Origin: Candidatus Micrarchaeota archaeon
GTDB taxonomy: Archaea > Micrarchaeota > Micrarchaeia > Anstonellales > Bilamarchaeaceae
Assembly (NCBI GenBank): GCA_964588555.1
Contig: CAZPPT010000002.1
Location: 101,979 to 165,978 of the forward strand
Direction: 5' to 3'
Length of the DNA: 64,000 bases
In this document: positions 33,090 to 64,000 of the stretch, piece after piece
Layout of the letters: every line of letters begins with the position of its first letter
How positions within the stretch are numbered: the first letter of the stretch is position 1
The notes under the pieces: model-generated
The model's input: only the letters and a program-made list of their open reading frames with translations
Databases searched by the model: none
What the model was told of the DNA's origin: nothing
Position numbers and translations under genes: made by a program

Positions 33090-33150
33090 ACTATCATTTT
33101 AGTAAATTCATTGACCAGAATGATAGTCATTTTAGTCAATTGATTTGACA
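33090..33150. promoter_or_regulatory. repeat-rich putative operator upstream of the DUF4143 ATPase gene
   Basis: Perfect palindrome GTCAATTGATTTGAC. A direct repeat TCATTTTAGT occurs twice. TGAC/GTCA half-sites are spaced around them. Confidence 0.3.
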
Positions 33151-41100: not shown

Positions 41101-41143
41101 TTATCATATTTATACCCTTTAAATATTTAATCATATGTTACGG

Positions 41144-44458: not shown

Positions 44459-44627
44459 CTGGCCACGGAAAAATTTACCGGTCTATGGGCATGCCTTGTC
44501 TTTTTTTCTGTGGTCACTGTTGCCATATTTACACCATAGAATAGTATATCACGAATAGTATTTAAATGAAACAGCCCCGACGTGGCATACATGTACTAAG
44601 AACACCGTATTCATTTATTAACCTAAC

Positions 44628-46750: not shown

Positions 46751-47707
46751 ATGGACGTCTACGCGACACTGGAATCAAGCCTCGGCAAGGACCGTATAGA
46801 GGAGGAGATAGGCAAAAAGCTTGCTGATTTCCATGGCCTCCTCACGCGTGATGTTGCACTCAAGCTTATTGCGAAGGAACACGGCATTATAAAGGAGGAA
46901 TCGGTGCAGATCAGTGAGATACGGCCGGGCATGAAACGCGTCACGCTCAAGGGGACGATCAGGCAAATCCATAAGATAGTTGAGTACAGCTTTGGAAAAA
47001 AATGCAGGAGCATGACAATTGCAGACCGGACAGGAACGACTACGCTGACTGTATGGAACGACGATGTGGAGCTTTTTTCAAGGCTTAAGGTCGGGGACGA
47101 AATAGAGGTAAAAAACGCATATGAACGCCTCGGCAGCCTCAATCTTGGGTACAACGGATCGGTAGGGGTGGTAAAGGCTGCGCCCTATAACGAATGCAAC
47201 CAACTGCCTGAAAACCAGCCGGTGAATGTCCGTGCATTCATCAGCCACATCCAAGGCACGCGAGAATACGAAAAAAATGGGATAAAAAAACAATATTACA
47301 TATTCACTGTTTCGGATGGGCGGGCTGAAGTGCGTTGCGTCGTATGGGACGGGCTTGAGCGGACGGGGAGGCTCGCCGTTGGGGACGAAGTCATAGTCCA
47401 GAACGCGATGGCTCGGAAAGGCGAGCTCCATATTAACACACATACACGCCTCCTTGCGCGAAAGCTTGCAAACCTCATAAGCGGCACGGTAACTAACATG
47501 CACGTACAGGCGAATAAGCTCCTCATCACAATTGGGGGGCGGGAGCTTGCATTCAATAGGGAACATGCACTTAAATTTTTTGGGGTCAAGATTGGTGACG
47601 ACATAACGCTTGAGACACTTGTCCAGCTTAAAAAGGAAAGCCTCCTTAATACTACAACGCATGTGCGTTGCAAGGAGGAAAACGGGGAATGGAAAATTAT
47701 TGATTGA
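46751..47707 (+). CDS. OB-fold (RPA-like) single-stranded nucleic-acid-binding protein with two OB repeats
   Basis: KRVTLKGTIRQI...TIADRTGTTTLTVWND...VGDEIEV and AEVRCVVWDG...VGDEVIVQNA fit the RPA DBD pattern. Confidence 0.4.
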   Translation: MDVYATLESSLGKDRIEEEIGKKLADFHGLLTRDVALKLIAKEHGIIKEESVQISEIRPGMKRVTLKGTIRQIHKIVEYSFGKKCRSMTIADRTGTTTLTVWNDDVELFSRLKVGDEIEVKNAYERLGSLNLGYNGSVGVVKAAPYNECNQLPENQPVNVRAFISHIQGTREYEKNGIKKQYYIFTVSDGRAEVRCVVWDGLERTGRLAVGDEVIVQNAMARKGELHINTHTRLLARKLANLISGTVTNMHVQANKLLITIGGRELAFNREHALKFFGVKIGDDITLETLVQLKKESLLNTTTHVRCKEENGEWKIID

Positions 47708-47717
47708 TGGTGGTTGC

Positions 47718-49862
47718 ATGGCTGAAAACGTCTCGCTTAAGGTTGCTGAAGCATATCAAAATGATATTGGAAGGGGCATTGCACGCCTTGACTCAAAGGC
47801 AAAGGACAAGCTCGGTGTCTCAACCGGGGACATCATTGTACTTAAGGGAAAGAAATCCGCGCTCGCAATAGTCTGGCAGGCACAGCCGGACGACGAAGGG
47901 CTTGAAATCATCCGTATGGACGGGATACTACGGCAAAACGCAGGCGTCGGCCTTGGGGACAAAGTGCATGTGGAGGCAGTTGAGGTAAAGGAGGCAAAAA
48001 AGATAATGCTTGCGCCAAAAGAGCCGATGCGGTATTCCATGGGATTTGACCAGTACGTAAAACGAAGGCTTGTCGGAAAACCGGTGCTTAAGGGAAACCT
48101 GCTTCCGGTCGGGATTTTTGGCACGTCAATTCCGCTTGTCGTTGCGCAGGTATTCCCACAGGGGCCAGTCATCATCACTGAAGAGACCGAACTAAGGATC
48201 AAAAAGGAGCCTGTCAAGGACTTAACGTCAGTGCCAAACGTCACCTACGATGACGTCGGGGGGTTACGCGACGCAATGCAGAAAATGCGCGAGATGATCG
48301 AGCTTCCGCTTCGCCATCCCGAATTGTTTGAGCGCCTTGGCATAGAACCGCCAAAAGGGGTGCTCCTCTACGGTCCGCCAGGCACTGGGAAAACGCTTCT
48401 TGCAAAGGCGGTTGCAAATGAAAGTGATGCAAACTTCTTTTACATCGGGGGGCCCGAGGTAATCAGCAAGTACGTGGGTGAAAGCGAGGAGCGATTAAGG
48501 AAGCTCTTTAGGGAGGCGGAGGAAAATGCGCCAAGCATAATCTTTGTTGATGAAATTGATTCGATCGCGCCAAAGCGTGAAGAGGTATTTGGCGAGGTTG
48601 AAAAACGGCTCGTATCTCAGCTCCTTACGCTTATGGACGGCCTTAAGGCACGCGGCCAGGTCATCGTAATTGGTGCGACAAACCGGCCGGATTCGCTTGA
48701 CCCTGCGCTTCGAAGGCCTGGCAGGTTTGACCGCGAAATTGAGATAGGGGTACCTGACCGCATCGGAAGAAAGGAGATACTCTTTATCCATACGCGGAAC
48801 ATGCCGCTTGCAAAAGACGTAAACATTGAGGAGCTTGCAAACATATCGCACGGATATACCGGTGCGGACCTCTCATTCCTTGTAAAGGAGGCGGCGCTTA
48901 AGTCGCTTCGGCGGATCCTTCCGGAGATCAACCTTGAGGAGGAGTTTATCCCGCAGGAAGTGCTTGAGAAAATAACGGTTACACGGGATGATTTCTTTGA
49001 TGCGCTTCGTGAGGTGCAGCCAAGTGCGCTTCGTGAGGTGTTTGTTGAGCGTCCAACGACGACATGGAATGACATTGGCGGCCTTGAGCGGGTCAAGGCG
49101 GAGATACAGGAAGCGGCGGAGCTTCCGCTTAAAAAGCCGGAGATATTTGAACGCATGGGAATCCGACCGGTCAAGGGAATACTGCTTTATGGTCCGCCAG
49201 GCACTGGGAAAACGCTTCTTGCAAAGGCGGTTGCGCATGAAACCGAGGCAAACTTTATTGCGATCAGCGGCGCGCAGGTGCTGAGCAAATGGGTGGGGGA
49301 TTCTGAAAAAATGGTCCGCGAGCTCTTCAAGAAAGCGCGCATGTCGGCACCGTGCATCCTCTTTATCGATGAAATAGACGCAGTTGCGCCCGTACGGGGG
49401 GCTGAAGAAGGCCACCGCGTCACGGAGCGGATCGTTGATACTATGCTTACTGAAATGGACGGGCTGAAAACGCTCAAGAATGTCGTGATAATCGCGGCGT
49501 CGAACCGGCCAGACATCATAGACCCCGCACTTCTTCGTGCAGGGCGATTTGACCGGGTTATTGAAGTCCCGCTTCCTGAGGAAACGACGCGGGTGCGCAT
49601 CCTCAAGATACATAGCAAAAAGATGCCGCTTGCAGGCGATGTTGACCTTAAGGAAGTTGCGCGGATGGCCGAGAACTACACGGGTGCGGACCTTGAAAAC
49701 CTCTGCAGGGAGGCAGGCATGGGCGCGATCCGCGAGGAGAAGAAAGAAGTAAGCATTGCGCACTTTATGGAAGCGATTAAAACGATACTGCCGACGCTAC
49801 GAAAACGGGATATCGAAAGCGTCGAGAAATTCAAGACGACCGTTGCAACGATGTACAGGTAA
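47718..49862 (+). CDS. cdc48: Cdc48/VAT-type AAA+ ATPase with N-domain and two AAA modules
   Basis: N-domain LKVAEAYQNDIGRGIARLD, Walker A LLYGPPGTGKTLLAKAVA twice, Walker B IIFVDEIDS and ILFIDEIDA, SRH arginines. ORF listed from 47610; start chosen at MAENVSLK. Confidence 0.85.
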   Translation: MAENVSLKVAEAYQNDIGRGIARLDSKAKDKLGVSTGDIIVLKGKKSALAIVWQAQPDDEGLEIIRMDGILRQNAGVGLGDKVHVEAVEVKEAKKIMLAPKEPMRYSMGFDQYVKRRLVGKPVLKGNLLPVGIFGTSIPLVVAQVFPQGPVIITEETELRIKKEPVKDLTSVPNVTYDDVGGLRDAMQKMREMIELPLRHPELFERLGIEPPKGVLLYGPPGTGKTLLAKAVANESDANFFYIGGPEVISKYVGESEERLRKLFREAEENAPSIIFVDEIDSIAPKREEVFGEVEKRLVSQLLTLMDGLKARGQVIVIGATNRPDSLDPALRRPGRFDREIEIGVPDRIGRKEILFIHTRNMPLAKDVNIEELANISHGYTGADLSFLVKEAALKSLRRILPEINLEEEFIPQEVLEKITVTRDDFFDALREVQPSALREVFVERPTTTWNDIGGLERVKAEIQEAAELPLKKPEIFERMGIRPVKGILLYGPPGTGKTLLAKAVAHETEANFIAISGAQVLSKWVGDSEKMVRELFKKARMSAPCILFIDEIDAVAPVRGAEEGHRVTERIVDTMLTEMDGLKTLKNVVIIAASNRPDIIDPALLRAGRFDRVIEVPLPEETTRVRILKIHSKKMPLAGDVDLKEVARMAENYTGADLENLCREAGMGAIREEKKEVSIAHFMEAIKTILPTLRKRDIESVEKFKTTVATMYR

Positions 49863-51570: not shown

Positions 51571-51960
51571 TCATTTCAAAAATAATACCTTTTTTTCACC
51601 TTTAAAGTGATTTTCATCACCTGTAATGATAGTTAAATCATGTAAACGAGCTTGCGCCATTATAATAACGTCCACGATGCCAATATCCTTGAATACTTTT
51701 CTCTTTTCGACGTATAGGTAGGCCGCATATTTACTTACCTCGTTATCAACTGGAATAGATTTTGAAAAAGAGTTTATTGTTACATACGCTTCATCTGGAA
51801 CTTTACCGTTTTTCAATAGTTTTATCATTACTTCAGCAATTGACAGAGTAGAGGTAAAAATTTCATTTGAGTTATTTTCTATCAATTGTTTTACCTTTTC
51901 TCCTTTACTACTTCCATCAAAATATTCGATCCACGCATACCTGTCAAGAATATATTTAGT
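51571..51960 (-). CDS. PIN-domain toxin (VapC-like)
   Basis: MTKYILDRYAWIEYF, and VDVIIMAQARLHDLTIITGDENHF near the C-terminus. ORF listed to 52017. Confidence 0.5.
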   Translation of the reverse strand, partial: TKYILDRYAWIEYFDGSSKGEKVKQLIENNSNEIFTSTLSIAEVMIKLLKNGKVPDEAYVTINSFSKSIPVDNEVSKYAAYLYVEKRKVFKDIGIVDVIIMAQARLHDLTIITGDENHFKGEKKVLFLK

Positions 51961-52153
51961 CATGAATATGCAACTCGTCTTCTTTTGTGAATGAACCAAT
52001 GCCCCGATATAACCCAAAACCGCTCTTCTTGACTTTTTTAACCGCTATTTCAACTGGCTCATTTGGATGAATATTGAGAAGTTCTACGAGCTGTTTTGGG
52101 ATAGTAACCATAAGAGAACCTCCAACACTTACGGTCTTAGATATGAATTCCAT
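51956..52153 (-). CDS. AbrB/SpoVT-type antitoxin-like protein
   Basis: GGSLMVTIPKQLVELLNI swapped-hairpin motif. It overlaps the PIN gene start. Confidence 0.5.
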   Translation of the reverse strand: MEFISKTVSVGGSLMVTIPKQLVELLNIHPNEPVEIAVKKVKKSGFGLYRGIGSFTKEDELHIHD

Positions 52154-52347
52154 TTAATCACCTGTTTAATTTAATTAAACAAAGTATTTAATAAACTAGT
52201 GGTAATCAGACCATATGTTGAAAAAGTATTTCATTATGAAAGCACCGATGAAGGAAAATACAAAAAAGGAAAATCCGACAACAATGGCATAATACAAATT
52301 ATGCCTGCGACAGCAACCTAAATCATAAAAATACGCTCGTCAAACTG

Positions 52348-52509
52348 CTCTCAAACGCAGTTAATCCGTTTCTTATTCCCCGATGTGCAAAATAAATCGT
52401 AATTTAATTTCTCATTTATTGCAGCGGATAAAACAAGAAAAAAGATGCCGAGCAGAATAAGCGCAAGCGCTTGTAGCTCAGCCACCTTGAAAAATTTTTT
52501 ATCTTCCAT
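52348..52509 (-). CDS. candidate 53-aa single-TM micro-protein (below the ORF-track length cutoff)
   Basis: MEDKKFFKVAELQALALILLGIFFLVLSAAINEKLNYDLFCTSGNKKRINCV, with SD-like AAGGTGA 8 nt upstream. Confidence 0.25.
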
Positions 52510-52583
52510 AAACAAATTCACCTTTTAATCTTTCTTCTACTTTGCCTACCAATAACGCAGTAAAGGAAAAACAATAAATGACG

Positions 52584-53894
52584 TCAATCCAAAAGCCATT
52601 TCCAGATCGGTTTTATAGTTATTTTTTTACCATTCACGGTGAGTTCTTCTGTTTGGTCTTTTGTTAGTATCAGCCCGCCTTGTAATTTAAAAAAGTTGAG
52701 TGCCCCAAGCAACCCGTTTATTTCACGATCATGGGTTTTTTCATCCAGTTTGTAGCATACTTGTATCGCCTGGCTGATTTTTCCTTTTTTATTTATAACA
52801 AAATCGCATTCCAGATTGTTGTCTGATTTATAATAAAATATACTTTTGTTTTCCACATTCCCCTCTCTTCTGAATAGTTCTATAAAAACAATATTTTCGC
52901 ATATCCTGCCGAAATCCTCTGCTTCATTCGTAAGAAAATGAATATACCCTGTATCGAATAGGTATATTTTTGATTTTGAAAACTCGCTTTTCTTAAATGA
53001 TTTGGAATACTCTCGCACATAGCAAAGCATAAATACGTCTTCTAATGCGGCAAGAATGTGGTATATGTCCTCTAAGCTATATGGTAATTTATTTGATTTG
53101 AGATAGCGTTCATATGCAGAAATGGAAAAAGTATTGCCAAAAAGATTAAGAAGGTATTTCATTGTTACTTCAACTAACCGTATATTTTTCAAGGCAAGCC
53201 GCTCAACAAGATCTTTATAGAGTACTGAATCAAAATAATTGTTTATTATTTTATTCTTAAGTGCCAGTTCAGTGCTTAAGACCACTTCGGGAAACCCGCC
53301 ATATTTTGCGTATTCATCAAACTGTTTTTTTATTTCAAATGCAGTATCCCCATATTCAAAATTCTTTTCTGGTGTGATCCCTCTTGTTTTTAGATATTCG
53401 AAAAAAGAAAATGGTAAAAGCAGATAAGAGAGCGACTTGCCCCGGAGAGCCGTTGCTATCTCTTTACTTAATAACTTTGAATTTGACCCTGTAATCGTTA
53501 CCGGATAATGCTCGTTTAGCAGACCAACAATAAACGGTTCCCAGTTTTTTACATTCTGAAGTTCATCAAAAAAGAAAACCAGTTTTTCTTTTGAAAAAAA
53601 CTCCTTTGAGTAGTCTAAAATTTTACTTAGATCACGTGCTGTTATTTCACTTAAGAGATTGTCATCAAAATTTATGAATACCCAGTCTTTGTCTTTTTGT
53701 TTTTTTATCATATTATACGTATAGTATGTTTTGCCTGCCTTTCGTGGACCGATAAGGATAGTTGCTTTATCGAGCTTTGTTTCGTATATTTGTAGATCTC
53801 TTTCATAAATACGTTCTGGCAGTAATTGCCGGTACTTAAGTATTATCCGTTTGATATCATCGTCGATCATATATACATTAGAAAGTAGCAACAT
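52584..53894 (-). CDS. AAA-superfamily ATPase, archaeal ATPase/DUF4143 type (paralogue of 31848..33083)
   Basis: Walker A LIGPRKAGKTYYT and Walker B FFFDELQN. Confidence 0.6.
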   Translation of the reverse strand: MLLLSNVYMIDDDIKRIILKYRQLLPERIYERDLQIYETKLDKATILIGPRKAGKTYYTYNMIKKQKDKDWVFINFDDNLLSEITARDLSKILDYSKEFFSKEKLVFFFDELQNVKNWEPFIVGLLNEHYPVTITGSNSKLLSKEIATALRGKSLSYLLLPFSFFEYLKTRGITPEKNFEYGDTAFEIKKQFDEYAKYGGFPEVVLSTELALKNKIINNYFDSVLYKDLVERLALKNIRLVEVTMKYLLNLFGNTFSISAYERYLKSNKLPYSLEDIYHILAALEDVFMLCYVREYSKSFKKSEFSKSKIYLFDTGYIHFLTNEAEDFGRICENIVFIELFRREGNVENKSIFYYKSDNNLECDFVINKKGKISQAIQVCYKLDEKTHDREINGLLGALNFFKLQGGLILTKDQTEELTVNGKKITIKPIWKWLLD

Positions 53895-53967
53895 ATAAAG
53901 CTTACGCTTTTCCGTAAGAAATTAACTATTTTTCTTACGCTTTTCCGTAAGTTTTATCCAACGGCAA

Positions 53968-55011
53968 TTACATCTTGATTTTCCGCCTAAACTTAATATA
54001 AGTTGCATAGGAGATGTACTGTTTTCGCGCAACGTGGTCCTTGACAAGCGGCGCCTTATTCCTTTTTTCCTCAATACGGTCAGTAACCGTAAGTGCAAAC
54101 GAATCGCTTCCCGCACCGCTTCCATAGGAAGTTACCAGTATCCGGTTTCCCGTTTTCGCTTCGTCAAGCACTGCCGCAAGGCCAAGGATGCTTGCACCAG
54201 AATAAGTATTCCCAATAATAGGGGTAAGCAGCCCCGCCTTCATCTTCTCAGGCGCAATGCCCATCTGCTTACCAAGCTGGATTGGGAATTTTGCATTTGG
54301 CTGGTGGAACACGATATAGTCGAAATCATTTGCCTTCATACCGACTTTCTCAAGAAGCCCCTCAGTTGCCTTGCCAACGTGCTTAAAGTATGCCGGTTCA
54401 CCAGTGAACCTACCGCCATGGAGCGGGTAATCACTTCCTTGCCTTCGCCAGAAGTCAGGAGTGTCGGTCGTGTACGAGTATGTCGCATCGATAGTTGCAA
54501 GTGACTCCTTTTCCGGGCCGACAATATATGCTGCTGCACCGCTTCCTGCACTGTACTCAAGTGCGTCACCAGGCCTTCCCTGCGCAGTGTCTGCACCGAT
54601 CGCTAAGCCATACGCAATGTGGCCTGCGGACACCATGCCGCTTACCATCTGAATACCGGCAGTACCTGCCTTGCATGCAAACTCTAGGTCCGCGGCAGTT
54701 GTCGCAGGCGTTGCACCGATCGCCTCCGCAACAATGGTTGCAGTCGGCTTGACTGCATACGGGTGTGACTCGCTTCCAACATACACCGCACCGATACGGG
54801 AGGGATTTATCCCTGCACGCAAAAGTGCACCTCGTGACGCTTCTGTGGCAAGCGTTGCCGCATCCTCATCAACTCCGCCCACTGCCTTTTCAAGAATCCC
54901 AAGTCCTTTTTCGATGCGTGCCGTCTCTTCGCCCCATACGGAGGCGATTTCAGCAGTCTTGATCCGATAAGATGGGATATAAACGCCATAACCTACAATG
55001 CCTGTTTTCAT
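53968..55011 (-). CDS. hydroxymethylglutaryl-CoA synthase, archaeal type
   Basis: [18 protein letters not shown]-terminus, active-site Cys context [12 protein letters not shown], thiolase-fold His/Asn region. ORF listed to 55131. Confidence 0.7.
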
Positions 55012-55159: not shown

Positions 55160-55651
55160 ATGGCATACACGCTTGGAGACGCCCAAAAACAGCTCCGGGC
55201 AGGAAAACTGCGCGACGCAGGCAGGGCGCTCGATTACCTTATAAGTCAGGATAGGTCAAACAGCAAGCTATGGTACCTGCGCGGCCTTGTGTCACTTCGT
55301 ACAAAGAATTATGACTATGCGCATGAATGCTTCGTACACGCCCTTGAACTTGAGAAGAAGGCGGCATACTACAAGATACGCGGCATGGCACATATGGAAA
55401 AATACGAATTTGAGGATGCGCTTGAACAGTTTGAGGCTGCTCGGGCGCTTGAGGAAAACGATACTGAAAATTATTTTTACATTGCATTATGCCACCTGTT
55501 CCGTAACAACCCTGCTGCAAAGACATACCTGGAAAAGGCATATCGGCACAACAGTACAAAAACAAAAAAAATGATACGGGATTTTTTTGAAACGTTCTTT
55601 CATAGCAGCGGTGATGCGCACCGGTTTCTTGGTAAGTTAAACCGCCTTTGA
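55160..55651 (+). CDS. TPR-repeat protein
   Basis: Three 34-aa units with the W/Y-LG-Y-A-F-P-like pattern (WYLRGLVSL...YDYAHECFVHALEL, YKIRGMAHM...FEDALEQFEAARAL). Confidence 0.45.
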   Translation: MAYTLGDAQKQLRAGKLRDAGRALDYLISQDRSNSKLWYLRGLVSLRTKNYDYAHECFVHALELEKKAAYYKIRGMAHMEKYEFEDALEQFEAARALEENDTENYFYIALCHLFRNNPAAKTYLEKAYRHNSTKTKKMIRDFFETFFHSSGDAHRFLGKLNRL

Positions 55652-56557
55652 ATCCCTAAGGCGTTTCTTGATCTTTGCAAGCCATACTCTCTCATTTATT
55701 TCCGCTATGCTAATTTTTTGAAGGATTGATGAGAAAAGGACGTTCATGGAAGACGTATCACGCCACGTCCGCTTTTGTTTTTTAAGGGTAAGCAGGTACG
55801 AGTAACTTGCAAGAAGCATATGGCGAAGGCGGCGCAGAAGTCTGCGCTCCTCGTGTTCGGTACGGGCGGCTTCCTTAAGAAGGACCTCCTGGTTATAGAT
55901 GCCTTTTGTGCTCTTTTTGAGTTCCTGCCTTTTTTCAAGCGCCTCTGCCCGAAGCTCCTTTATCCGTTCAAGAAACTTGTTGATGACCGGTTCGATAAAC
56001 GGCTCATGAAGGATAATAAGCCAGCCCTCCTTACGCAGTTCGCGGTTTTTCCGTTTTATCACCATGAGGACTTCGTCTTTATCCATCCGGTCCTCAAGAA
56101 GGCCCAAAAGCACCGGCCAGGTGGCCTCAAGGGACCTGCGGTCTATCGAGCCGGACCACTGCCGCAGAAAGTCGCGCGCCTCATAGAGCTGCCTGCGAAG
56201 GGATTTAATGCGCAGGAGTTCCTTCTGGCAGGTGGGGGAATCCATTTTCTTAAAATCAAGAAGCCAGGTGACGCGCTTAAGAATTTCCGAGAGGTGCGGG
56301 TCGTCAAGAAGCGATGTGACATATAATGGAAAATGCTTTTGCAAAAGCCCGAGTTCCTGGAGATTTTCGTAAAGGTACTCAAGGACCTCAAAGCGCTTTT
56401 TCTTTATGTCCTTTTTTGCCTGTGCAAGGCGCTCGCGGGTTTCCGCATCGCGCATAACCTGGTATTCCTTGCCAAGCAATGCCTGCTTTTCCTCAAGCAC
56501 CGCAAGTTCTCCTGCCGCATCCTCAAGATAGTCGATAAGCATGGCAATTACTTGCAT
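55637..56557 (-). CDS. coiled-coil hypothetical protein
   Basis: 306 aa, E/K/L/R-rich. It overlaps the upstream Cys-rich gene by 10 nt. Confidence 0.35.
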   Translation of the reverse strand: MQVIAMLIDYLEDAAGELAVLEEKQALLGKEYQVMRDAETRERLAQAKKDIKKKRFEVLEYLYENLQELGLLQKHFPLYVTSLLDDPHLSEILKRVTWLLDFKKMDSPTCQKELLRIKSLRRQLYEARDFLRQWSGSIDRRSLEATWPVLLGLLEDRMDKDEVLMVIKRKNRELRKEGWLIILHEPFIEPVINKFLERIKELRAEALEKRQELKKSTKGIYNQEVLLKEAARTEHEERRLLRRLRHMLLASYSYLLTLKKQKRTWRDTSSMNVLFSSILQKISIAEINERVWLAKIKKRLRDSKAV

Positions 56558-57432
56558 GTATGCGATTTCTCATCGCACACTTCTCCCTGCACGCAGTCCT
56601 CATCAACGGAACAAAATCCAAGCTTTGCATCGCACACGTGCGTTATGCGGTCGCAGGTTTCCCACGTATTACAGTCGTTGTTGCTTGAACAGAACCCGCG
56701 ACGTGCTACGCATGCATGGGACTTGTCATCGCAGTACTCCCACTCTGAGCACTCATTGTCATGGTCGCAGAAACCCTGCACTGCAACGCAGCGCCTGTTT
56801 TCAAGGTCGCAGGTCTGCCATTTGCCGCAATCGCCGTCATTGTCGCAAAAGCCCTTCCGTGGTTCGCAGATATTGGTCTTAAGGTCGCACTCCTGCCATG
56901 CACCGCAGTTTGCATTCTCATTACACCTGCCTTCAAGCACCTGGCATTTTCCCTGCTCAATGTTGCATCGTTCATGGCCTTGGCAATCGAGGTTCGTTTT
57001 ACAAAGGCCGGGCTTCGGAGTACATTTATGGAATGTGGGGTTACAATATTCCTGCGCCTCGTCGCACTGGTTGTTGTTTGAGCAAAAGCCGGGTGCGGGG
57101 TTGCACGTATTGTTTGCACCGCACACCTGCCACGTATCGCAGTCGGCAGTTACGCGGCACCGGTCCTGCTTAAATTCACAAAGGTGCGTGGTTTGGTCAC
57201 ACCGTAAAAGAGTATCGTTGCATGCCGCATCAGCAGTGCAAAACCCTTCGCGTGTCTCGCATACCTTTTTTTCCAGGTTGCACCGCTGCCAATCCTTGCA
57301 GTTCTTGTCCGTCGTACAGCCGGCTGAAGTGCCGCTACACCCAAACGCAACGAGCAAAAAAACAAATCCAATAAAAAGTACCAGTCTTGAATTCATAGGA
57401 TCACTTAACCTAGTTACAATTGTTGTAGTCAT
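56548..57432 (-). CDS. Cys-rich tandem-repeat secreted lipoprotein-like protein (~10 repeats of ~27 aa)
   Basis: Signal and lipobox-like LVLFIGFVFLLVAFGCSG. Repeats of the form GFC-x3-[DN]C-x2-W[QE]xCD-x5-C. It overlaps the HAD gene by 4 nt. Confidence 0.5.
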   Translation of the reverse strand: MTTTIVTRLSDPMNSRLVLFIGFVFLLVAFGCSGTSAGCTTDKNCKDWQRCNLEKKVCETREGFCTADAACNDTLLRCDQTTHLCEFKQDRCRVTADCDTWQVCGANNTCNPAPGFCSNNNQCDEAQEYCNPTFHKCTPKPGLCKTNLDCQGHERCNIEQGKCQVLEGRCNENANCGAWQECDLKTNICEPRKGFCDNDGDCGKWQTCDLENRRCVAVQGFCDHDNECSEWEYCDDKSHACVARRGFCSSNNDCNTWETCDRITHVCDAKLGFCSVDEDCVQGEVCDEKSHTCK

Positions 57433-58148
57433 AGCTTTTTAAGGATTTCCAAAAGCGAGGAAAAATCCCCAAGTGATGCAGTAGCACGAGTCTTCTTTAC
57501 TCTTTCTTGTTTTTCTCGGCGCACAAGGATGGCGTGCATCCCTACGTGGCGGGCTGGCGCAATGTCAAATTCCTCCTTGTCGCCGACCATGACGCACGAC
57601 TCAGGGGGGACACGAAGGCGCAGAAGCACCTTTTCAAAGAACTGCGTGCTTTTCTCAATGCCGACTTCATCAGATACGAATACGTCCTCAAAATAAAGGG
57701 CAACACCAAGGCGGATGAGCTTGTCCCATTGCTTTATCGCATTTCCGTTTGTCGCCACATACAGCTTGTACCCGTTTTCGCGCAACTGAAGAAGCGTGCG
57801 CGGGACGTCGGGATAGGGAAGTATGCTTGCCTTTGCGTTATGGTATGCTGCAACTGCCGCTGCAATAAAACGCGCCGGACTTTGTATCTTAAGCTCCTTA
57901 AGCAATGCATCAAAATGATGGGGGTCGTTTGAACCGCGCCGTTTGATGATGGCAAGAAGCTTTTCATAGAGCGCATCGCTATTCCTAAACGGCAGGCCAA
58001 GCTCAATCATGGAACGGATCGCATTTTTGCGTGCAAGAAGGGCAAACTCGCTTGTGGGAAAGAGGGTATTGTCGATATCAAAAAACAGGTGACCGACGGG
58101 CATACTAGAAACTAGAACGGCTGCATTTTTATTTATGCCCTTTGTCAA
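57429..58148 (-). CDS. HAD-superfamily hydrolase
   Basis: Motif I FFDIDNTLF, motif II VATNG, motif IV VGDKEEFDI. Confidence 0.65.
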   Translation of the reverse strand: MTKGINKNAAVLVSSMPVGHLFFDIDNTLFPTSEFALLARKNAIRSMIELGLPFRNSDALYEKLLAIIKRRGSNDPHHFDALLKELKIQSPARFIAAAVAAYHNAKASILPYPDVPRTLLQLRENGYKLYVATNGNAIKQWDKLIRLGVALYFEDVFVSDEVGIEKSTQFFEKVLLRLRVPPESCVMVGDKEEFDIAPARHVGMHAILVRREKQERVKKTRATASLGDFSSLLEILKKL

Positions 58149-59421
58149 GATTGCGCGGCTGCGGGAGATTTTCCATGTACGTAAGGTAAGAACGCCCCAC
58201 TAAGCCGCCAAATAAAAATGCGGGGACTACAAATGCAATGGTAGCGCCAACCATCCCAAAAGAAGCGGTAATGAATGCTCCTGCGCAGCTTAAACCGGTA
58301 AGAACAGACGTAGTAATAGAAGCCGTATTCCAAAGTGAGATGCCATTTTCTTTTCCAATGCGTCTCTGTATCACGCCTGCACTCAGGCGAAATTGCCGCA
58401 CAAGGGAGGTATAATGTTGATGCCGTTCCGAATAAGTAAAAATGTGGTCAAGTGCGCCCGTATCGCCGATAATTTCAAGGCAGCGCAAAAACGGGGAAAC
58501 CGTTTCCTTTGTTGTTGCGTCCGCAAGCCCTTTAAGGAGTTCTTCCTGTACGTAACTGCGGCCCTGCGGCTGATCACGGATAAGCCGAACAATATCAAAA
58601 ATAGCCCGGTTAACAACAGGGGGCTCAACTGAAGAAAGAAGCCTTAGGTTATGCGTAACTTGTTCATAAAATGTATGATCGATACGAGCCGGGCCGCCTC
58701 TCTGCTGCCGAGGCCTGACGACTGAAGTCGGTTCTCGTGGCGCTCTTGAAGAAGGCGTTTCTTCGGGGGGAAAAGCATGTTCTGGCGGAAGTGGTTCCCT
58801 AAATCCAAGCGCACGGGGCGCTTTAGGTGCCTGGTCTGTTGCCTCTTCTGCAGGATCAGCTGGAGGTTGCGCCCGTACTTCTGACCGAGCAAAAGATGAC
58901 AAAGGTAACATAGGGGCTGGTGCATCTGCATCAGAACTGGGAAGTTCAACCTCCACGGATATGATCCCATCGCTAATCGTGGCACCGTCGCTTGCCCTAA
59001 CATTCGATGGAAGCCGTGATGCTGAAGCTTGAGGAGTTACATCACCCGTACGCGGATCAGTGTCACGCTCATCACGGGTAGCCAAAACGGTAGGGCGTGC
59101 TAAACTTGGTGCCCGGGGCTCAGTCGGCTCAGGGACTTCGACCGTTGTAGGGATACCATCCGGCACATCCGGGTCATCGTCAGGATGCACGTCGTGCGTG
59201 GCAGCAAGATCATCATAAGGAATCATTCCGGGCGGAAGTGGACCACGGGGTGCGGTAATGTCTGACCGCTCACGGGGCTTCGGTTGAACTTCAGGCTCAG
59301 GTTTTGAACTGTCCGCACTATGTTTCATACCCGTGGAAGCAGGCCGTGAAACTGCCGGAACAGGAGTTGTTCCTTTCGTACCTGGCGCTCCGCTCCCCCC
59401 ATCTTTTAATTTTTGGTTCAT
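58129..59421 (-). CDS. proline-rich hypothetical protein with C-terminal transmembrane helices
   Basis: About 280 aa of P/T/S/A/E-rich low complexity, then a globular region and the TM pair LSCAGAFITASFGMVGATIAFVVPAFLFGGLVG. Confidence 0.4.
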   Translation of the reverse strand: MNQKLKDGGSGAPGTKGTTPVPAVSRPASTGMKHSADSSKPEPEVQPKPRERSDITAPRGPLPPGMIPYDDLAATHDVHPDDDPDVPDGIPTTVEVPEPTEPRAPSLARPTVLATRDERDTDPRTGDVTPQASASRLPSNVRASDGATISDGIISVEVELPSSDADAPAPMLPLSSFARSEVRAQPPADPAEEATDQAPKAPRALGFREPLPPEHAFPPEETPSSRAPREPTSVVRPRQQRGGPARIDHTFYEQVTHNLRLLSSVEPPVVNRAIFDIVRLIRDQPQGRSYVQEELLKGLADATTKETVSPFLRCLEIIGDTGALDHIFTYSERHQHYTSLVRQFRLSAGVIQRRIGKENGISLWNTASITTSVLTGLSCAGAFITASFGMVGATIAFVVPAFLFGGLVGRSYLTYMENLPQPRNLDKGHK

Positions 59422-59434
59422 GTCAATCAGCAAA

Positions 59435-61312
59435 TTATTGTAGTGAATAAAATATATTTTGAAGGAAATTTGTCGTGCCCGTTGCAGGTATCGTATAGGT
59501 GATGCGCGCACCGACGCCAGGCGGTTCCTCAAAGGAAATGGCAGTCAATGCACTTTTTATTTCATCCGCTAACGGACCAGGTATTGATTTTCCGTTCATT
59601 GACGTGAGTGCGACAGATGCAGGCACCACATTACCGTTAATCTTATTGCTTGGGTCAAGGGAGACCTCAACCATAACCCCGTCGCAGTAATTGACCATTG
59701 ATTGAAAACGTTCGCTGATAGGCGCTAACGTATCCGAAATAATAGGTGTAACCTTTCGTGCATATGAATCCTTCTCTGCATCAAATTGTGCTATGCCCGG
59801 GTTAAGGTCAATACCGCGTGGCTGCGTTGGGCGAATAGGAACACCGCGTCGTGCAAATTGCCGAAGCGCAGGGCGTCGGGTTGTTCCGTCAGAACATTCG
59901 CCCATGTCGTACGCTTCTTCAAGCAGTTCGGCCATAGTAAAAGCAGTTCTTGAAAGGGCAGTATTCGTATTAAGCCGGACGTACCTTTCAGTGATATCGG
60001 TAAATCGATCGTATGTATCCTCAAAACTTTGAGTGCCACGCGCCCGAATATAATCGCATGCTGTCCGAAGTGCAGGCGACATGCGTACAACGACCCCTGC
60101 AACTGCCGTATCTTCAGGCACATCACGGGGGGCTTTAACGTCTCTATAAAGCGTTCCAAGCCCGTTATCCTCAATAAACGTAGATACGGCCGAATCAAGT
60201 TTTTCTGCTGCGAGGGGAATTGCCTTTTCCAAAAGCACGATAAGTGGTGCAAATTCAGGGGGTACAAGGCCGGTTTCCCGAAACTTATATAGCGTAAGCG
60301 CTGAATTAAGCTCCCCATTTGCAAGTCTCTGTGCGTATGATTCTATAAGCCTGGCTTTTTCATTTTTGTCAGTAAGTGCTGCATCTGCACCCGCAAGAGA
60401 AACATGTTCTTGTGTTTGGTCAGCGATTTTAAGAAGCAGCGAATATGCCTTTCCGATATGCCCTGCATTGTAATAGCTGTACGCGGCAGTTTCCAAATCG
60501 CCTTTGGACTCAGCGTCTTGTGCCTTTGTGTATTGGGCAGAACGGGATTCTTCAGTAGTTCCAAAGCGTGGGTCAAAAAGGTTGCCAAGGACTTCTTTAA
60601 CAACCGGTGCATCGGATACCGCAGTATAAACGCTTTTATGCACAAGGGCAATTTCATCCGAGCGCGCAATGCAGAAAAGTTCAACTGCAACATCAGCAAT
60701 TTCATGAGAAATTTTTCCTACGTTTTCAGCCAAATCGCCTCTCCGTATGAGCTTTCGTAATGATGCGACTTTATTAACTAATGCAAGATGTGCATCCTTG
60801 ACATCGTCGCCAAGATCGGGTGGTTCACCAGGACCCACAAACTTTGCTGACCGTTCCAATGCAGCGACGGTATTAAGCAAAGCTGTCCGCACGTCGCCTT
60901 TAGTTTCAGAAGTTATTCCATCAATCTTCTGTTCGACCTCTTCCTTAATGAGCGTATATACTGGGGCATATGCTACACCATTGCCCTCACGGATAAGGAT
61001 ATTTGCCATCAATTTTGCACGTGCATGTGCTTTTGGATCTTCGCGGTTATCCATATACGTAGTAAGCGCATCAGCTATTTTTCCCTCGCGCTCAAGTGCT
61101 GCTCCGTGTGTGAGGTAATCCTTGGAACTAGATATGACTATCGGGGCTTCTTCAATTACGGGTTTAGGAACAGTTGAAGTGGCAACAGGTGGTGCATGGC
61201 CAGGGGTCTGCTCTTCTTGTTGTTTATAGCGAATAAGCACTGTTGTCGCAACGGCAATCGTAGCAATCCCAACCGCTCCTGCAACTAGTCTTTTTCTCAT
61301 GAATGACCCCAT
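59435..61312 (-). CDS. N-terminally anchored hypothetical protein (625 aa)
   Basis: Signal-anchor LVAGAVGIATIAVATTVLI. The rest is mostly helical with no enzymatic motifs. Confidence 0.4.
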   Translation of the reverse strand: MGSFMRKRLVAGAVGIATIAVATTVLIRYKQQEEQTPGHAPPVATSTVPKPVIEEAPIVISSSKDYLTHGAALEREGKIADALTTYMDNREDPKAHARAKLMANILIREGNGVAYAPVYTLIKEEVEQKIDGITSETKGDVRTALLNTVAALERSAKFVGPGEPPDLGDDVKDAHLALVNKVASLRKLIRRGDLAENVGKISHEIADVAVELFCIARSDEIALVHKSVYTAVSDAPVVKEVLGNLFDPRFGTTEESRSAQYTKAQDAESKGDLETAAYSYYNAGHIGKAYSLLLKIADQTQEHVSLAGADAALTDKNEKARLIESYAQRLANGELNSALTLYKFRETGLVPPEFAPLIVLLEKAIPLAAEKLDSAVSTFIEDNGLGTLYRDVKAPRDVPEDTAVAGVVVRMSPALRTACDYIRARGTQSFEDTYDRFTDITERYVRLNTNTALSRTAFTMAELLEEAYDMGECSDGTTRRPALRQFARRGVPIRPTQPRGIDLNPGIAQFDAEKDSYARKVTPIISDTLAPISERFQSMVNYCDGVMVEVSLDPSNKINGNVVPASVALTSMNGKSIPGPLADEIKSALTAISFEEPPGVGARITYTIPATGTTNFLQNIFYSLQ

Positions 61313-61372
61313 ATATATTTAGATGCGATATGTTTATAAACTCATATTTTATCACATTCATCAACTAAATAA

Positions 61373-62620
61373 CTAATTCGAAGAGGACGTGACAAATGAG
61401 AATACATGCGGCTTCTTTTGTGGAAGCTCAATAGTGAATGGCAGTAGTGACTGATATAACGCATCCTCAATTTCCCTAAGCTTTCCGTTTAATCGCAAAT
61501 CAGGCGGGTTAAGTGCAAGGTTCACGGACTCAACACGTCCTGATTCACTTACGTTCACAGTGAACTTCATACTGGATGCGGCTGGAAACTGGTCAGCATA
61601 TCTGCGAAGCACGCGTAGGACAGCGTCTTGTGCAATGCGATTCTTAAACTCATCCTTTGTTACCGTGCGTGCTTCTGGCACCATGAGCCTGCGTACAGAT
61701 GATGGAGTTGATTTAGGGCGCGAGCCCGTACCAGACGTAGGGGCCACGGCTTGCACCGCTTGAACTTTAGGTGTCCCTGGATCTTCGGAAGGGAGGGCGG
61801 GCGGATTTTGACGTCTTTCGGTTTGTGCAAATACAACGCCGGCATCAGCGGGAGCACGAGAAGTAGGATCTGAAGCAAGATATGCATCCTCACTTCTTGT
61901 GCCTGCATCAACTGCAATGGTTCGTTGATAGGTTGGATCAAGCGCTACGAGTTTTTCCTCCCAGGATCCAAGGTCATTTTTGACAACTTCACGATATGCA
62001 GGCTGTTCTTGTGCAACAGACTTATAAAAAGCGACAACTTGGTGAAGCAAAGTTGCATTGTTCCCCTCCACCGCCTTATTTGCGGCACGTGTCGCATAGT
62101 CCAATGCGTTGCTAATGTTTTTACCTTCAAGGTAAAGGGTTGCCATGGTAAGATAATCCTGATTATCTTCCGCTATTCTTAAGTCGGCATCACGTACCCT
62201 CTTTTTTACCTGTTCGAGTATCGGTGGCGAAAAATTATGTCTTTTGGCTATATCGATAAGCGTACGCATTTGAGGGATAGCGTTTTCTTCCAAAACGGCA
62301 GGAACAAGTATCTCAACAAGCTTTGTTGCTCGACCTGAATTACCAGCATTAAGCGCATTCGTTAGGTCACTAAGCGCACTTGGTATATGCAGACGTGCAG
62401 CGGGTTCTGCCGGTGCGACGGCTGCCTTAGTAGTTGCGGCACCATGTCCGGCATCTGTTTTTTTTGGTACGTGTACAGGCACCTCAACAGCAGGAGGCAC
62501 CTTGGAAAACCGGCTTTCAGAAGTATAGAAATTAACCATGGTAAATGCAGTAACTGTTGATGCAAGCGCAAGTGAAACAAATTGTATGGTTCTACCAGGA
62601 CTATTTAAAACCTGTTTCAT
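61373..62620 (-). CDS. N-terminally anchored protein with proline-rich linker and TonB-C-like C-terminal domain
   Basis: TM VSLALASTVTAFTMV, Pro-rich PPALPSEDPGTPKVQAVQAV. C-terminal FTVNVSESGRVESVNLAL...LREIEDALYQSLLPFTIE resembles the TonB C-terminal fold. Confidence 0.35.
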   Translation of the reverse strand: MKQVLNSPGRTIQFVSLALASTVTAFTMVNFYTSESRFSKVPPAVEVPVHVPKKTDAGHGAATTKAAVAPAEPAARLHIPSALSDLTNALNAGNSGRATKLVEILVPAVLEENAIPQMRTLIDIAKRHNFSPPILEQVKKRVRDADLRIAEDNQDYLTMATLYLEGKNISNALDYATRAANKAVEGNNATLLHQVVAFYKSVAQEQPAYREVVKNDLGSWEEKLVALDPTYQRTIAVDAGTRSEDAYLASDPTSRAPADAGVVFAQTERRQNPPALPSEDPGTPKVQAVQAVAPTSGTGSRPKSTPSSVRRLMVPEARTVTKDEFKNRIAQDAVLRVLRRYADQFPAASSMKFTVNVSESGRVESVNLALNPPDLRLNGKLREIEDALYQSLLPFTIELPQKKPHVFSFVTSSSN

Positions 62621-63987
62621 ATTCTTCCACCCCTGGATTTGAAATATTTAATGTAATATGCACGCCTGTTTTTAACTGAACCAATGACGGTGCCTGTAAG
62701 TGATACGACCCCACTTACAACTCCAATACTAATGCCTGCTGCTGAACCATAAGTCATTCCCGCATATGCGCCGCTAAGTGCGGACATGCCCATGGCAACT
62801 GCAGGGGATAAAACGGATATCAGCCCGTCATCAGTAGTACGGTACAATTTATTGTGCTCCTTTGCATAGCGCCTGCCAAGGCGTACCCGTGCAGATTGAA
62901 GCAAGGTACGTAATTGGGTACGAAGAGGCGTATCGACGGAGACTGTTGCAAGCCCGTCGATAACTCGGCCATCTCCCGCAAGTGCAAGCGCCTCAATATA
63001 TGGGAAAACATCCCTGCCGTTATGCAAAAGCATGTCCTCAAGCCGTTTGATAAGCGTATCGATATGTTCATCAGGGAACGATTCGATGTCGGCACGGAGG
63101 CGAGTCATGGCAACAGTCCTGCTTCTGCCGGTTTTTTTGCTTGCTTCAATAATCCTGTTTTCAAGGGAAACGACTTCTGGATCATCTGCATGTGCCACTG
63201 CACTTACGGGGGAGGTATGTCGCACAGGTGCTGCGGGAACTGCTCTTGAAGGGGAGTCCACTGGTGCCCGCAGTGGTTGCACTGGCTTTCCATTTCTACC
63301 AGCACCATTTCTTTTAAGGCGCCGCACGTTTTCAAGTTCCCTTGCTATTACTTCTTGGACTTCTTGCTCAAGATCACGTTCTCTTGCGTTACGTTGTAGG
63401 GCCTCAAATGTTGATACAAGGTTTCCCGCCAGGACTCTTTCTTTGAGGCGTTCAACTGCACGTATTGCGGCAGCAGGTGTACGACTGTTTCTATCAAGGA
63501 TGGCGGCTTGAAGCGCGTCTGTATCGCCTAAAGTATTTAACTGCTCAATTTGGGTAATGTCCATCACCCGAGTTGTTCGAGCTGCACCATATACTTTGAC
63601 TCGGGGGTCGGGAAAACTAACTATCTCTTGCGGACCTGTTGGCGGTACGGGGGGAGGCCTCGCGCGTAGCGGTGGCAATGTTGCTTCGCTAGTCCCGCGT
63701 GCAAGCGGATGCGTCGCATCTGAATCGGCACGCGGCATGGGGGCAGTGCGTTCGGTTGGTTCTTCGATACGTCGGGCGATGGTTCTCATCCTATCTTGTA
63801 GTTCGGTTGGATAACCAGATGACGTATCCCGCGCAAATCCATTACGAAGTGCAGCACGAATGTCGTCATCAGTTGAATATGCGGCGATTGTGTCAAGAGC
63901 CTCAAGCACGCGAGCGGCATGAGGCGAAATTACCGGGCCGGCAGAGTCATGCACATAGCCGTCAAGAAGTGAAAAAAGCGTGTGCAC
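62617..63987 (-). CDS. hypothetical protein with C-terminal transmembrane/glycine-zipper segment
   Basis: C-terminus AVAMGMSALSGAYAGMTYGSAAGISIGVVSGVVSLTGTVIGSV. It overlaps the downstream gene by 4 nt. The N-terminus lies 13 nt from the window edge. Confidence 0.4.
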   Translation of the reverse strand: MHTLFSLLDGYVHDSAGPVISPHAARVLEALDTIAAYSTDDDIRAALRNGFARDTSSGYPTELQDRMRTIARRIEEPTERTAPMPRADSDATHPLARGTSEATLPPLRARPPPVPPTGPQEIVSFPDPRVKVYGAARTTRVMDITQIEQLNTLGDTDALQAAILDRNSRTPAAAIRAVERLKERVLAGNLVSTFEALQRNARERDLEQEVQEVIARELENVRRLKRNGAGRNGKPVQPLRAPVDSPSRAVPAAPVRHTSPVSAVAHADDPEVVSLENRIIEASKKTGRSRTVAMTRLRADIESFPDEHIDTLIKRLEDMLLHNGRDVFPYIEALALAGDGRVIDGLATVSVDTPLRTQLRTLLQSARVRLGRRYAKEHNKLYRTTDDGLISVLSPAVAMGMSALSGAYAGMTYGSAAGISIGVVSGVVSLTGTVIGSVKNRRAYYIKYFKSRGGRI

Positions 63988-64000
63988 GTCCTGTACCGTA

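Follow-up and report, generated by a model that had tools for sequence, protein, structure and literature searches.

A putative lipoprotein of ten tandem four-cysteine modules encoded at a Micrarchaeota locus

Gene content, coding strand, and N-terminus

The window, i.e., the whole 64,000-nt stretch of DNA that was analyzed, carries on its minus strand a gene for a cysteine-rich repeat protein with closely spaced neighbors on the same strand (Table 1). The ORF listing contained both frames named in a preliminary description of this DNA, the minus-strand frame of 294 aa and the plus-strand frame of 369 aa, and the gene callers picked the minus strand on an independent assembly. ORF, gene calls, cysteine spacing, and orthologs agree with the earlier view that the minus strand encodes a protein with a signal peptide, a lipobox, and about ten cysteine-rich repeats; it is the coding strand of the 56333-57442 region, and the gene is real. 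The true start is probably the ATG at 57396 (M13 of the longest ORF), which yields a product of 282 aa; the ortholog N-termini align to M13, and an SD-like GTGATCC lies 1 nt upstream of this ATG.

Table 1. Coordinates of the features at the locus (positions within the window)
Feature	Position	Strand	Basis or remark
HAD-IA phosphatase gene (TIGR02253 family, PH1655-like)	57429..58103	-	Pfam, NCBIfam; directly upstream
Cysteine-rich repeat gene, putative lipoprotein	56548..57432	-	Longest ORF, 294 aa, stop codon included
Putative signal peptide with lipobox	57337..57396	-	MNSR / LVLFIGFVFLLVAF / G-C(32), from sequence
Array of ten 4-Cys modules, residues 36-294	56551..57327	-	Cys spacing, unit HMM, AlphaFold2
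Units 1-5	57327-57250, 57249-57169, 57168-57094, 57093-57013, 57012-56935	-	
Units 6-10	56934-56857, 56856-56779, 56778-56701, 56700-56623, 56622-56551	-	
Charged, helix-rich protein of 301 aa, no family match	55637..56542	-	Gene call; downstream
TPR-like 163-aa gene, convergent	55160..55651	+	Gene list, faint TPR matches
Stop-free antisense frame, 369 codons	56333..57442	+	ORF; judged non-coding

The neighborhood matches the order described earlier (HAD hydrolase gene, cysteine-rich gene, third gene) and is tightly packed: the TGA stop codon of the HAD gene overlaps the ATG of the longest cysteine-rich ORF (ATGA), and 5 nt lie between the stop of the latter and the start of the 301-aa gene. 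The HAD protein matched PDB entry 2HOQ (PH1655) with an E-value of 2e-46, and its gene is found directly upstream of the cysteine-rich gene in 13 of 22 related loci. A link of this phosphatase to lipoprotein or lipid metabolism was considered and set aside as unsupported speculation, the enzyme being soluble and PH1655-like. The 301-aa protein gave no significant match in Pfam, PDB, or PHROG; relatives of its gene occur 0.9-5 kb downstream of the cysteine-rich gene in eight other loci, and tblastn synteny placed the TPR-like gene together with it in five others. A Redoxin gene was seen near one ortholog. Scanning the window for Rfam families and tRNAs found nothing.

At its N-terminus the protein combines a positively charged n-region (MNSR) with a hydrophobic h-region, as expected for a lipoprotein, ahead of the lipobox cysteine, C32, in LLVAFGC. 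Compared to the lipobox pattern [LVI][ASTVI][GAS]C, the A-F-G-C of the window protein fits at -1 and +1 and deviates at -3 and -2, making it non-canonical; the orthologs have L-A-G-C, L-S-G-C, F-A-G-C, L-Y-G-C, or V-F-G-C, and G-C preceded by a K/R-containing n-region and a hydrophobic core is present in all of those with a placeable start. C32 is a putative lipidation site. Predictions place lipobox proteins widely across the archaea, and AliA, the lipidation enzyme (arCOG02177), has been reported in DPANN (PMC12462473).

Repeat modules, predicted fold, and distribution

The minus-strand product contains 41 cysteines (14% of the protein), of which C32 is followed by 40 at a 6-6-7-7 spacing with zero exceptions. 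Alignment of 222 ortholog units gave the consensus pG[YF]C-xxDxD-C-xxW[QE]x-C-[DN]xx[TS]Hx-C-x[PA]K, with all four cysteines kept in every unit and a modal length of 26 aa (127 units). The repeat periodicity thus held on alignment, as did the earlier estimate of about ten repeats, which are exactly ten; the estimated period of about 27 aa is replaced by 26 aa, and the three disulfides once suggested for each unit are too many, because four cysteines allow at most two. One shared unit position is occupied by W or Y in 154 of the 222 (W in 127, Y in 27), and D/N, Q/E, and H are conserved as well. The unit HMM recognized 10 domains in the cysteine-rich ORF (E 4.7e-84) and had no match outside it when the window was translated in all six frames. 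With 45 D/E versus 29 K/R, the mature protein is acidic.

At the DNA level TRF found no tandem array, and the units within the window protein are only ∼33% identical to each other. When compared with ortholog L004, orthologous units were closer than paralogous ones (0.65 versus 0.32), with the best match on the diagonal for 10 of 10. This closer likeness across species than within the protein shows that the array is old and that its unit number is held constant. That number is fixed among orthologs at ten, or at twelve in a sister clade; where starts could be placed, 40 or 48 cysteines follow the lipobox (50 in the outlier L023). A recently expanded DNA tandem repeat, of the kind found in contingency-type surface proteins, was rejected on these three grounds: absence of a TRF array, low identity between paralogous units, and fixed unit number.

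Structure prediction, proposed as a check in the preliminary description, yielded a confident modular AlphaFold2 model (pLDDT 88 overall, 85-98 over the array) in which every unit forms a short helical turn plus a β-hairpin and the modules are stacked; DSSP assigned strands at xWQxC and xxCx in each unit. A sequence search of the PDB with the protein found nothing. Foldseek returned local matches to squash knottins (21-23 residues, rmsd 0.7-0.9 Å, probability ≤0.92, with E-values of ∼1) and also to the cysteine-rich domains of Draxin and Dkk4. Disulfide formation and connectivity within the modules are predicted features; by analogy, C1-C3 plus C2-C4 pairing, which would make each module a DDH-like unit, is the most likely arrangement. 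Among relatives, all four cysteines are present in 815 of 818 units, and their co-loss is too rare to indicate pairing. Going by the MAG isolate labels alone, several of the samples seem to come from groundwater or the subsurface. Such sites may be anoxic, so that extracellular disulfide formation is not guaranteed.

The protein had been called odd for an archaeon, a view that its distribution does not bear out: it represents a conserved, syntenic family with full-length orthologs (31-64% identity) in 20 species-level genomes, of which 19 have Micrarchaeota or Micrarchaeia lineage titles, and with two further metagenomic orthologs. A word-indexed homolog search gave 3 and then 7 matches, and the wider set came from an exhaustive search of representatives together with a genome scan. 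The HMM search suggested earlier was run and identified Pfam DUF5885 (PF19232), an uncharacterized cysteine-rich family with no function attached, at 46.3 bits versus a gathering cutoff of 33.2 (E 4.8e-12, four stretches); the match is partial, its best stretch covering positions 51-108 of the 265-position model. Homologs P0001 and P0002 carry a precomputed DUF5885 annotation, 16 of 67 relatives match this model, and the close ortholog P0004 falls below the cutoff (20 bits). By its sequence, then, the window protein is a further member of an already known, uncharacterized family.

Approximately 210 representative clusters carry the repeat. Many of the relatives have lipobox-like N-termini, with repeats that often begin soon after the lipobox-like cysteine, and some add VWA, Peptidase_C25, RCC1, Malectin, PD40, PPC, or CBM domains; protease and β-propeller domains are thus among those joined to the repeat. 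The related multidomain proteins span 450-2000 aa and have the repeat as a cysteine-rich N-terminal stalk, whereas the Micrarchaeota protein is a stalk only, of 10 or 12 units. All cluster records of the relatives are unnamed or "hypothetical," PHROGs gave no match for the cysteine-rich protein, and a literature search on DUF5885, PF19232, DUF7107, and DPANN cysteine-rich surface proteins turned up nothing relevant.

Candidate functions and the opposite strand

We propose that the minus-strand product is probably a secreted, membrane-anchored, disulfide-stapled extracellular rod of a Micrarchaeota (DPANN) archaeon that acts as an envelope spacer or adhesin, a role suggested by its architecture and by analogy. 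In this proposal, a Sec-type signal peptide ending in the lipobox would direct export, and the lipobox cysteine would be joined to a membrane lipid, which by analogy to Haloferax may be a thioether-linked archaeol. The mature protein would consist solely of ten 26-residue modules (twelve in the sister clade), each a tight turn (CxxDxDC) that leads into a β-hairpin (xxW[QE]xC...C) and is closed by two disulfides, C1-C3 and C2-C4, as the register shared with squash knottins would predict. Together the modules could make up an acidic rod, resistant to proteases and fixed in length, that extends outward from the membrane as an envelope spacer or strut, or as an adhesive stalk toward a host or substratum. 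A stalk role is consistent with the lipobox-like N-termini and, in some cases, fused domains among the clusters that carry the repeat; the lack of a "head" domain in the Micrarchaeota proteins counts against it. A narrower version, in which an archaeol-anchored "ruler" of tandem DDH modules with fixed length sets the distance from membrane to S-layer or from cell to host in Micrarchaeota, is offered tentatively, as something we would not expect to be correct.

DPANN archaea, Micrarchaeota among them, are believed to rely on physical contact with a host, and to our knowledge hardly any of their envelope proteins carry an annotation. A candidate lipoprotein of predicted rigid cysteine-rich modules that is single-copy and syntenic throughout the lineage is a concrete candidate for an envelope or contact component, and it offers a ready substrate with which archaeal lipoprotein biogenesis could be tested outside haloarchaea.

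Function as a glycan-binding adhesin, in which the W/Y and the Asp/Asn/His/Gln positions create a repeated sugar face and the protein serves as a multivalent lectin for the host envelope or an exopolysaccharide, is rather unlikely. The aromatic residue shared by most units and the conserved polar positions are compatible with such a face, as are the Malectin or CBM fusions among relatives and the general view of Micrarchaeota, as DPANN archaea, as living attached to hosts. The Foldseek matches to the Entamoeba Gal/GalNAc lectin and to scytovirin are weak and not significant (E 0.03-0.1), however, no lectin family HMM in Pfam or NCBIfam matched, and in a two-disulfide module of 26 residues the Trp may do no more than provide the hydrophobic core. 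Still less probable is an extracellular metal-binding or redox protein that uses its 40 cysteines as free thiols or ligands for metallothionein-like sequestration of Zn, Cu, Fe, or As. The high cysteine content, the Redoxin gene beside one ortholog, and the impression from MAG isolate labels that several source samples are possibly anoxic groundwater or subsurface would suit this function, but the hairpin modules are predicted at very high confidence without metal, the cysteine spacing fits the knottin/DDH disulfide register, CxxC and CC motifs are absent, and among relatives the module serves to link enzymes.

The local structural likeness to squash trypsin inhibitors also brings to mind a polyprotein that is cut into ∼26-residue disulfide-rich peptides, or a tandem knottin-like protease inhibitor or toxin. 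We consider this improbable: processing sites are not conserved between units, units keep a position-specific identity and a fixed count from ortholog to ortholog, neither the third disulfide of the knot nor the inhibitory loop is present, and the putative lipid anchor favors a protein retained at the surface.

The preliminary description had pointed to the 369-codon antisense frame; it is indeed open, with zero stops, and the significance attached to it did not survive comparison with orthologs. The antisense and sense frames share third codon positions, as follows from their coordinates, and synonymous codon shuffling predicts ∼4 stops, so that an open frame is not typical for this cysteine-rich gene (P(0) ∼0.004). 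On the scale of a genome it is not unusual, the window having many antisense stretches of 150-307 codons free of stops. The frame is open because the protein has few Tyr, uses F for Y in G[FY]C, places Trp before Gln, and lacks NNT codons ahead of His or Gln. The frame is not conserved, since the corresponding frame contains 3-14 stops in all 21 orthologs checked, those in the closest ortholog arising where the sense protein changes conservatively from F to Y. Against L004, the sense protein is 65% identical and the antisense frame 55%. A true overlapping gene on the antisense strand is extremely improbable: its ATG start and 1.1 kb without a stop speak for it, but its openness is explained by the F/Y usage and the W-Q motif, it extends antisense into the neighboring gene, its product has no Pfam or NCBIfam match, no gene was called there on the independent assembly, and in ortholog L014 a different antisense frame is fully open. 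The plus-strand frame is a by-product of composition and no second gene. Its dismissal removes a false lead and illustrates how a protein rich in Cys, Asp, Asn, and Trp and poor in Tyr can leave the wobble-sharing antisense frame open.

Comparison with known cysteine-rich systems

The resemblance to eukaryotic or myxobacterial cysteine-rich modules noted earlier proved to be only weak. A weak signal for Myxococcus TraA (NF033759) was detected for the window protein at 17.2 bits (E 0.0015), far below the cutoff of 750, and the likeness to TraA and Myxo_Cys_RPT repeats extends to P0008, the one of six relatives tested against NCBIfam to give a match, which was to TIGR04201 only and at the cutoff. 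The window protein matched neither Dickkopf_N (PF04706) nor DUF7107 (PF23416) at E ≤ 1; among the relatives, these models match 7 and 9 of 67, respectively. The repeat of a 2026 "CysRRep" preprint was considered and set aside as a different, six-cysteine repeat (Cx6-9Cx5-7Cx8-11Cx7-8CC).

Squash knottins offer another parallel, with a turn and hairpin predicted for each window unit, C-x5-C-x2-W-x2-C-x6-C, the spacing of which presumably lines up with the C9-x5-C15-x5-C21-x5-C27 of EETI-II. The units also agree in register with what we take to be the DDH consensus, C-x(5-19)-C-x5-C-x(6-19)-C, in which the hairpin carries C3 and C4, and their W presumably stands where that consensus has G/P. We know of no description of the DDH fold beyond single peptides, toxin-like, from arachnids and from a sea star. 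Cysteines in DDH are connected I-III, II-IV (PMC11891777). DDH and knottin proteins are single secreted toxin or inhibitor peptides, whereas the window protein has ten covalently tandem units in a putative lipoprotein.

Cysteine-rich transmembrane proteins of giant viruses (Pithovirus, Cedratvirus, and Pandoravirus) were matched by Foldseek in BFVD with E-values down to 4.9e-14 and a probability of 1.0. TM-scores reached only 0.1-0.2, which is what flexible, elongated repeats would be expected to give, and sequence identity was 17-26%. The likeness does not establish common descent. The viral proteins have a TM anchor, whereas the window protein has a lipobox. If the tentative ruler proposal were true, the occurrence of the module both in multidomain relatives and in membrane proteins of giant viruses would suggest that prokaryotes have been an ancient reservoir of the knottin-core fold.

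Repeat architecture and conservation of the Cys-rich protein

The minus-strand product contains 41 Cys residues. The first (C32) ends a hydrophobic N-terminal segment (..FVFLLVAFGC), and the remaining 40 follow a spacing of 6, 6, 7, and 7 residues with no exceptions; by this spacing, residues 36-294 form ten units of 24-27 residues each. The repeat motif given in the preliminary description was correct and its count of about 10 repeats held, but the modal period is 26 residues rather than about 27, and the suggested three or so disulfides per unit must be lowered to two at most because each unit has four Cys. An HMM of the unit identified ten domains in this ORF (E 4.7e-84) and no further match in the six-frame translation of the whole window. 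Because Tandem Repeats Finder detected no nucleotide tandem repeat in the gene, and the units share only ∼33% identity with one another (of which the Cys alone account for 15 percentage points), the array is an old, diverged protein repeat and not a recent DNA expansion.

A scan using one genome per species found full-length relatives at 20 loci, with 31-64% identity and E-values from 1e-117 to 3e-47. The genome titles read Candidatus Micrarchaeota, Micrarchaeia, Anstonellales, or Bilamarchaeaceae for 19 of these loci and "uncultured archaeon" for the other; metagenomes provided two additional orthologs. These sequences are already in public assemblies, and the ones named by their source are labelled "hypothetical protein". 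In every ortholog with a placeable start, the n-region is short and basic and leads into a hydrophobic core and x-G-C; the array behind it has 40 Cys in ten units or 48 in twelve, and 50 Cys in one outlier (L023). Arrays thus seem to come in two discrete sizes, of 10 or 12 units. The consensus derived from the ortholog units is pG[YF]C-xxDxD-C-xxW[QE]x-C-[DN]xx[TS]Hx-C-x[PA]K, and all four Cys are kept in 222 of 222 of them. Orthologous units exhibited 0.65 identity compared to 0.32 for paralogous units, with 10 of 10 best matches lying on the diagonal against the closest ortholog (L004). The fixed unit number and position-specific units argue that the length and unit order of the Micrarchaeota array are under constraint.

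Coding strand and the antisense frame

Both ORFs described earlier for this region are present in the ORF listing, including the antisense frame that is open for 369 codons. Independent evidence of several kinds points to coding on the minus strand, in agreement with the original proposal. Gene callers applied to an independent assembly with an identical protein called minus-strand genes only, the minus-strand product passes the Pfam DUF5885 gathering threshold (46.3 vs 33.2 bits), and the plus-strand product had no match in Pfam or NCBIfam. The orthologs and their retained Cys residues support the same strand. All 21 orthologs checked, GC-rich ones included, have 3-14 stops in the frame left open in the window, and identity to L004 is greater for the sense frame (65%) than for the antisense frame (55%). 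In L004, conservative replacements of Phe by Tyr in the sense product account for two of the three antisense stops; one example is GGT-TTC to GGT-TAT within the G[FY]C motif. A true antisense gene on the plus strand is effectively excluded.

According to the coordinates, the third codon positions of the open plus frame coincide with those of the sense frame; among the antisense frames, it is the one that constraint on the sense strand disturbs least. A stop can arise in it only where the sense strand has an NNY-TAN or NNT-CAN dicodon. The Cys-rich protein has just 2 Tyr, the invariant Trp (TGG) precedes 5 of the 13 Gln, and NNT codons never precede His or Gln in the gene. Shuffling of synonymous codons gave a mean of 4.0 antisense stops and P(0) = 0.004, a value that is unusual for a single gene and of an order expected a few times per genome, which we take to hold a thousand-odd genes. 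Long antisense ORFs are a general feature of the window and not particular to this gene, with stop-free antisense stretches of 150-307 codons being common. The CDC48 gene (47607-49862, plus strand) has a 307-codon stretch of this type at 48873-49796 on the minus strand, and others of 150-225 codons occur elsewhere. In the ortholog from a Candidatus Anstonellales MAG (L014, 5019-5855), a different antisense frame is completely open (0 stops in 278 codons) and the frame open in the window has 10 stops. Both observations fit a chance origin, and we conclude that the composition of the gene left the antisense ORF open by accident. The case cautions that a long antisense ORF can be spurious.

Start codon, gene order, and surroundings

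The ATG of the longest ORF overlaps the stop codon of the HAD gene (ATGA, 57429-57432). The true start, however, is probably the ATG at 57396, because the ortholog N-termini line up with M13 (MNSRLVLF...) and GTGATCC, a match to the complement of the 16S rRNA 3' end, stands before this codon. The operon-like packing noted earlier for the HAD, Cys-rich, and 301-aa genes is real in that their same-strand order is tight, with the ATGA overlap and a 5-nt gap. When the window neighbors were run by tblastn against all fetched loci, 13 of the 22 related loci had the HAD gene immediately before the Cys-rich gene on its upstream side. They comprise nearly all members of the ten-unit clade (L021 being an exception) and none of the twelve-unit clade. 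This sister clade, which lacks the upstream HAD gene, consists of Micrarchaeia MAGs (L015-L020, in which 48 Cys follow the lipobox, and L023). The 301-aa gene has relatives 0.9-5 kb downstream in 8 other loci, 5 of which also possess the convergent TPR-like gene. By its NCBIfam match (177.5 vs 169.75 bits), the HAD protein belongs to the TIGR02253 family of HAD-IA phosphatases; it is closest to Pyrococcus PH1655 (PDB 2HOQ, E 2e-46), and no functional link to the Cys-rich protein is evident beyond conserved gene order. In a low-GC relative (L001, 3456-6090), an AP_endonuc_2 gene lies between the Cys-rich gene and the 301-aa homolog, and a Redoxin-family gene is found ∼3 kb downstream.

The window is ordinary archaeal chromosomal DNA. 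Its genes include CDC48, UvrABC, a beta-CASP nuclease, NFACT, and HMG-CoA synthase, along with several very large ORFs without a family match; no tRNA, rRNA, or any Rfam family was detected at the gathering threshold across the 64 kb. The GC content falls to 0.34 in the trough (window average ∼0.47), and both AAA_14/DUF4143 genes may be mobile or recently acquired. The PIN-domain gene and the MazE-like gene preceding it are a probable toxin-antitoxin pair. The three consecutive large ORFs had no Pfam match at E <= 1e-3 and may encode orphan surface or giant proteins, which are often reported in DPANN genomes. The four ORFs upstream of the HAD gene had no significant Pfam match: one of 430 aa is Pro/Asp/Ala-rich with C-terminal hydrophobic segments, one of 625 aa has an N-terminal TM-like segment, and the other two are ∼415 aa and >460 aa, the latter running off the window. 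The longest ORF at 58129-59532, of 467 aa, has an overlap with the 625-aa gene; for this ORF the gene caller chose a start at 59421.

Coordinates of the Cys-rich gene and other features of the window
Feature	Position	Strand	Remarks
UvrA-UvrB-UvrC	24514-31074	minus	complete bacterial-type nucleotide-excision-repair cluster in archaeal context
RNase_H_2-superfamily gene	31075-31872		after Uvr cluster
Second AAA_14/DUF4143 gene	31848-33098	minus	low-GC stretch (0.40)
Three consecutive large ORFs	35931-44482	minus	1186, 554, and 1112 codons stop-to-stop
PIN-domain gene	51571-52044	minus	preceded by MazE-antitoxin-like 65-aa gene (independent assembly's gene list)
AAA_14/DUF4143 ATPase gene	52584-53894	minus	in GC trough 52001-54000
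TPR-like gene	55160-55651	plus	convergent
301-aa gene	55637-56542	minus	gene call; start 5 nt past stop of Cys-rich gene
Antisense frame	56333-57442	plus	369 aa
Cys-rich repeat protein	56548-57432	minus	ORF listing, 294 aa
HAD gene	57429-58103	minus
Four more same-strand ORFs	58129-63999	minus	upstream of HAD gene

Module relatives, predicted structure, and possible role

HMMER, run exhaustively against 1.84 billion cluster representatives, revealed 210 proteins at E <= 1e-3, 80 at <= 1e-10, and 13 at <= 1e-30. The close relatives are short and share the architecture of the Cys-rich protein; most others are 450-2000 aa, and many have a lipobox-like N-terminus with the repeats soon after. Domain matches among the 67 relatives scanned included DUF5885 (16), DUF7107 (9), and Dickkopf_N (7), and some contained VWA, Peptidase_C25, RCC1, Malectin, PD40, PPC, CBM, or dockerin domains. 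Informative names for the relatives were absent from the source databases, and the papers searched contained nothing on DUF5885 or DUF7107. The Cys-rich protein is a DUF5885 member by the family's own threshold, the match being partial and the family uncharacterised; it did not reach the Dickkopf_N, DUF7107, or TraA thresholds.

The AlphaFold2 model (17-sequence alignment) had a mean pLDDT of 88 (85-98 over the array) and a pTM of 0.53, and every unit displayed a short helical turn at xDxDC followed by a two-stranded hairpin (xWQxC / xxCx). Foldseek returned no significant global PDB match to the model. Its local matches included the squash knottins EETI-II and MCoTI-II (21-23 residues, rmsd 0.7-0.9 Å, 30-43% identity, probability up to 0.92) and the Cys-rich domains of Draxin and Dkk4. 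The best matches among predicted viral structures were Cys-rich membrane proteins of Pithovirus, Cedratvirus, and Pandoravirus, with E down to 5e-14 and TM-scores of just 0.1-0.2, as expected for flexible rods. The unit resembles the core of disulfide-directed beta-hairpin (DDH) and knottin folds locally. In an alignment with EETI-II, the four Cys of a unit, C1 to C4, fall on C9, C15, C21, and C27, and this register suggests C1-C3 and C2-C4 pairs. Such pairs would give the I-III/II-IV connectivity of the DDH fold (PMC11891777). Analysis of Cys co-loss gave no pairing signal, as all four Cys are present in 815 of the 818 units detected among the relatives.

At the level of the N-terminal motif, the protein has a Sec-type signal peptide for export, and lipid is probably attached at the lipobox Cys. 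Haloferax lipobox proteins are thioether-linked to archaeol; lipobox proteins are predicted to occur broadly across archaea, and AliA enzymes have been reported in DPANN (PMC12462473). Oxidative folding would then generate ten two-disulfide hairpin modules, forming an acidic rod (45 D/E vs 29 K/R) that projects from the membrane. Because the relatives appear to use the repeat as a stalk and the unit number is conserved, we infer a role as envelope spacer or strut, or as adhesive stalk. Competing readings are a multivalent lectin, a thiol- or metal-binding protein, and a knottin-like inhibitor or polyprotein. The protein is a plausible component of the cell envelope in a symbiotic archaeal lineage that has received little study. 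Its use may be likened to that of the Cys-rich stalks in longer relatives, where the repeat appears to link a membrane anchor to a functional head; the Micrarchaeota proteins consist of the stalk only.
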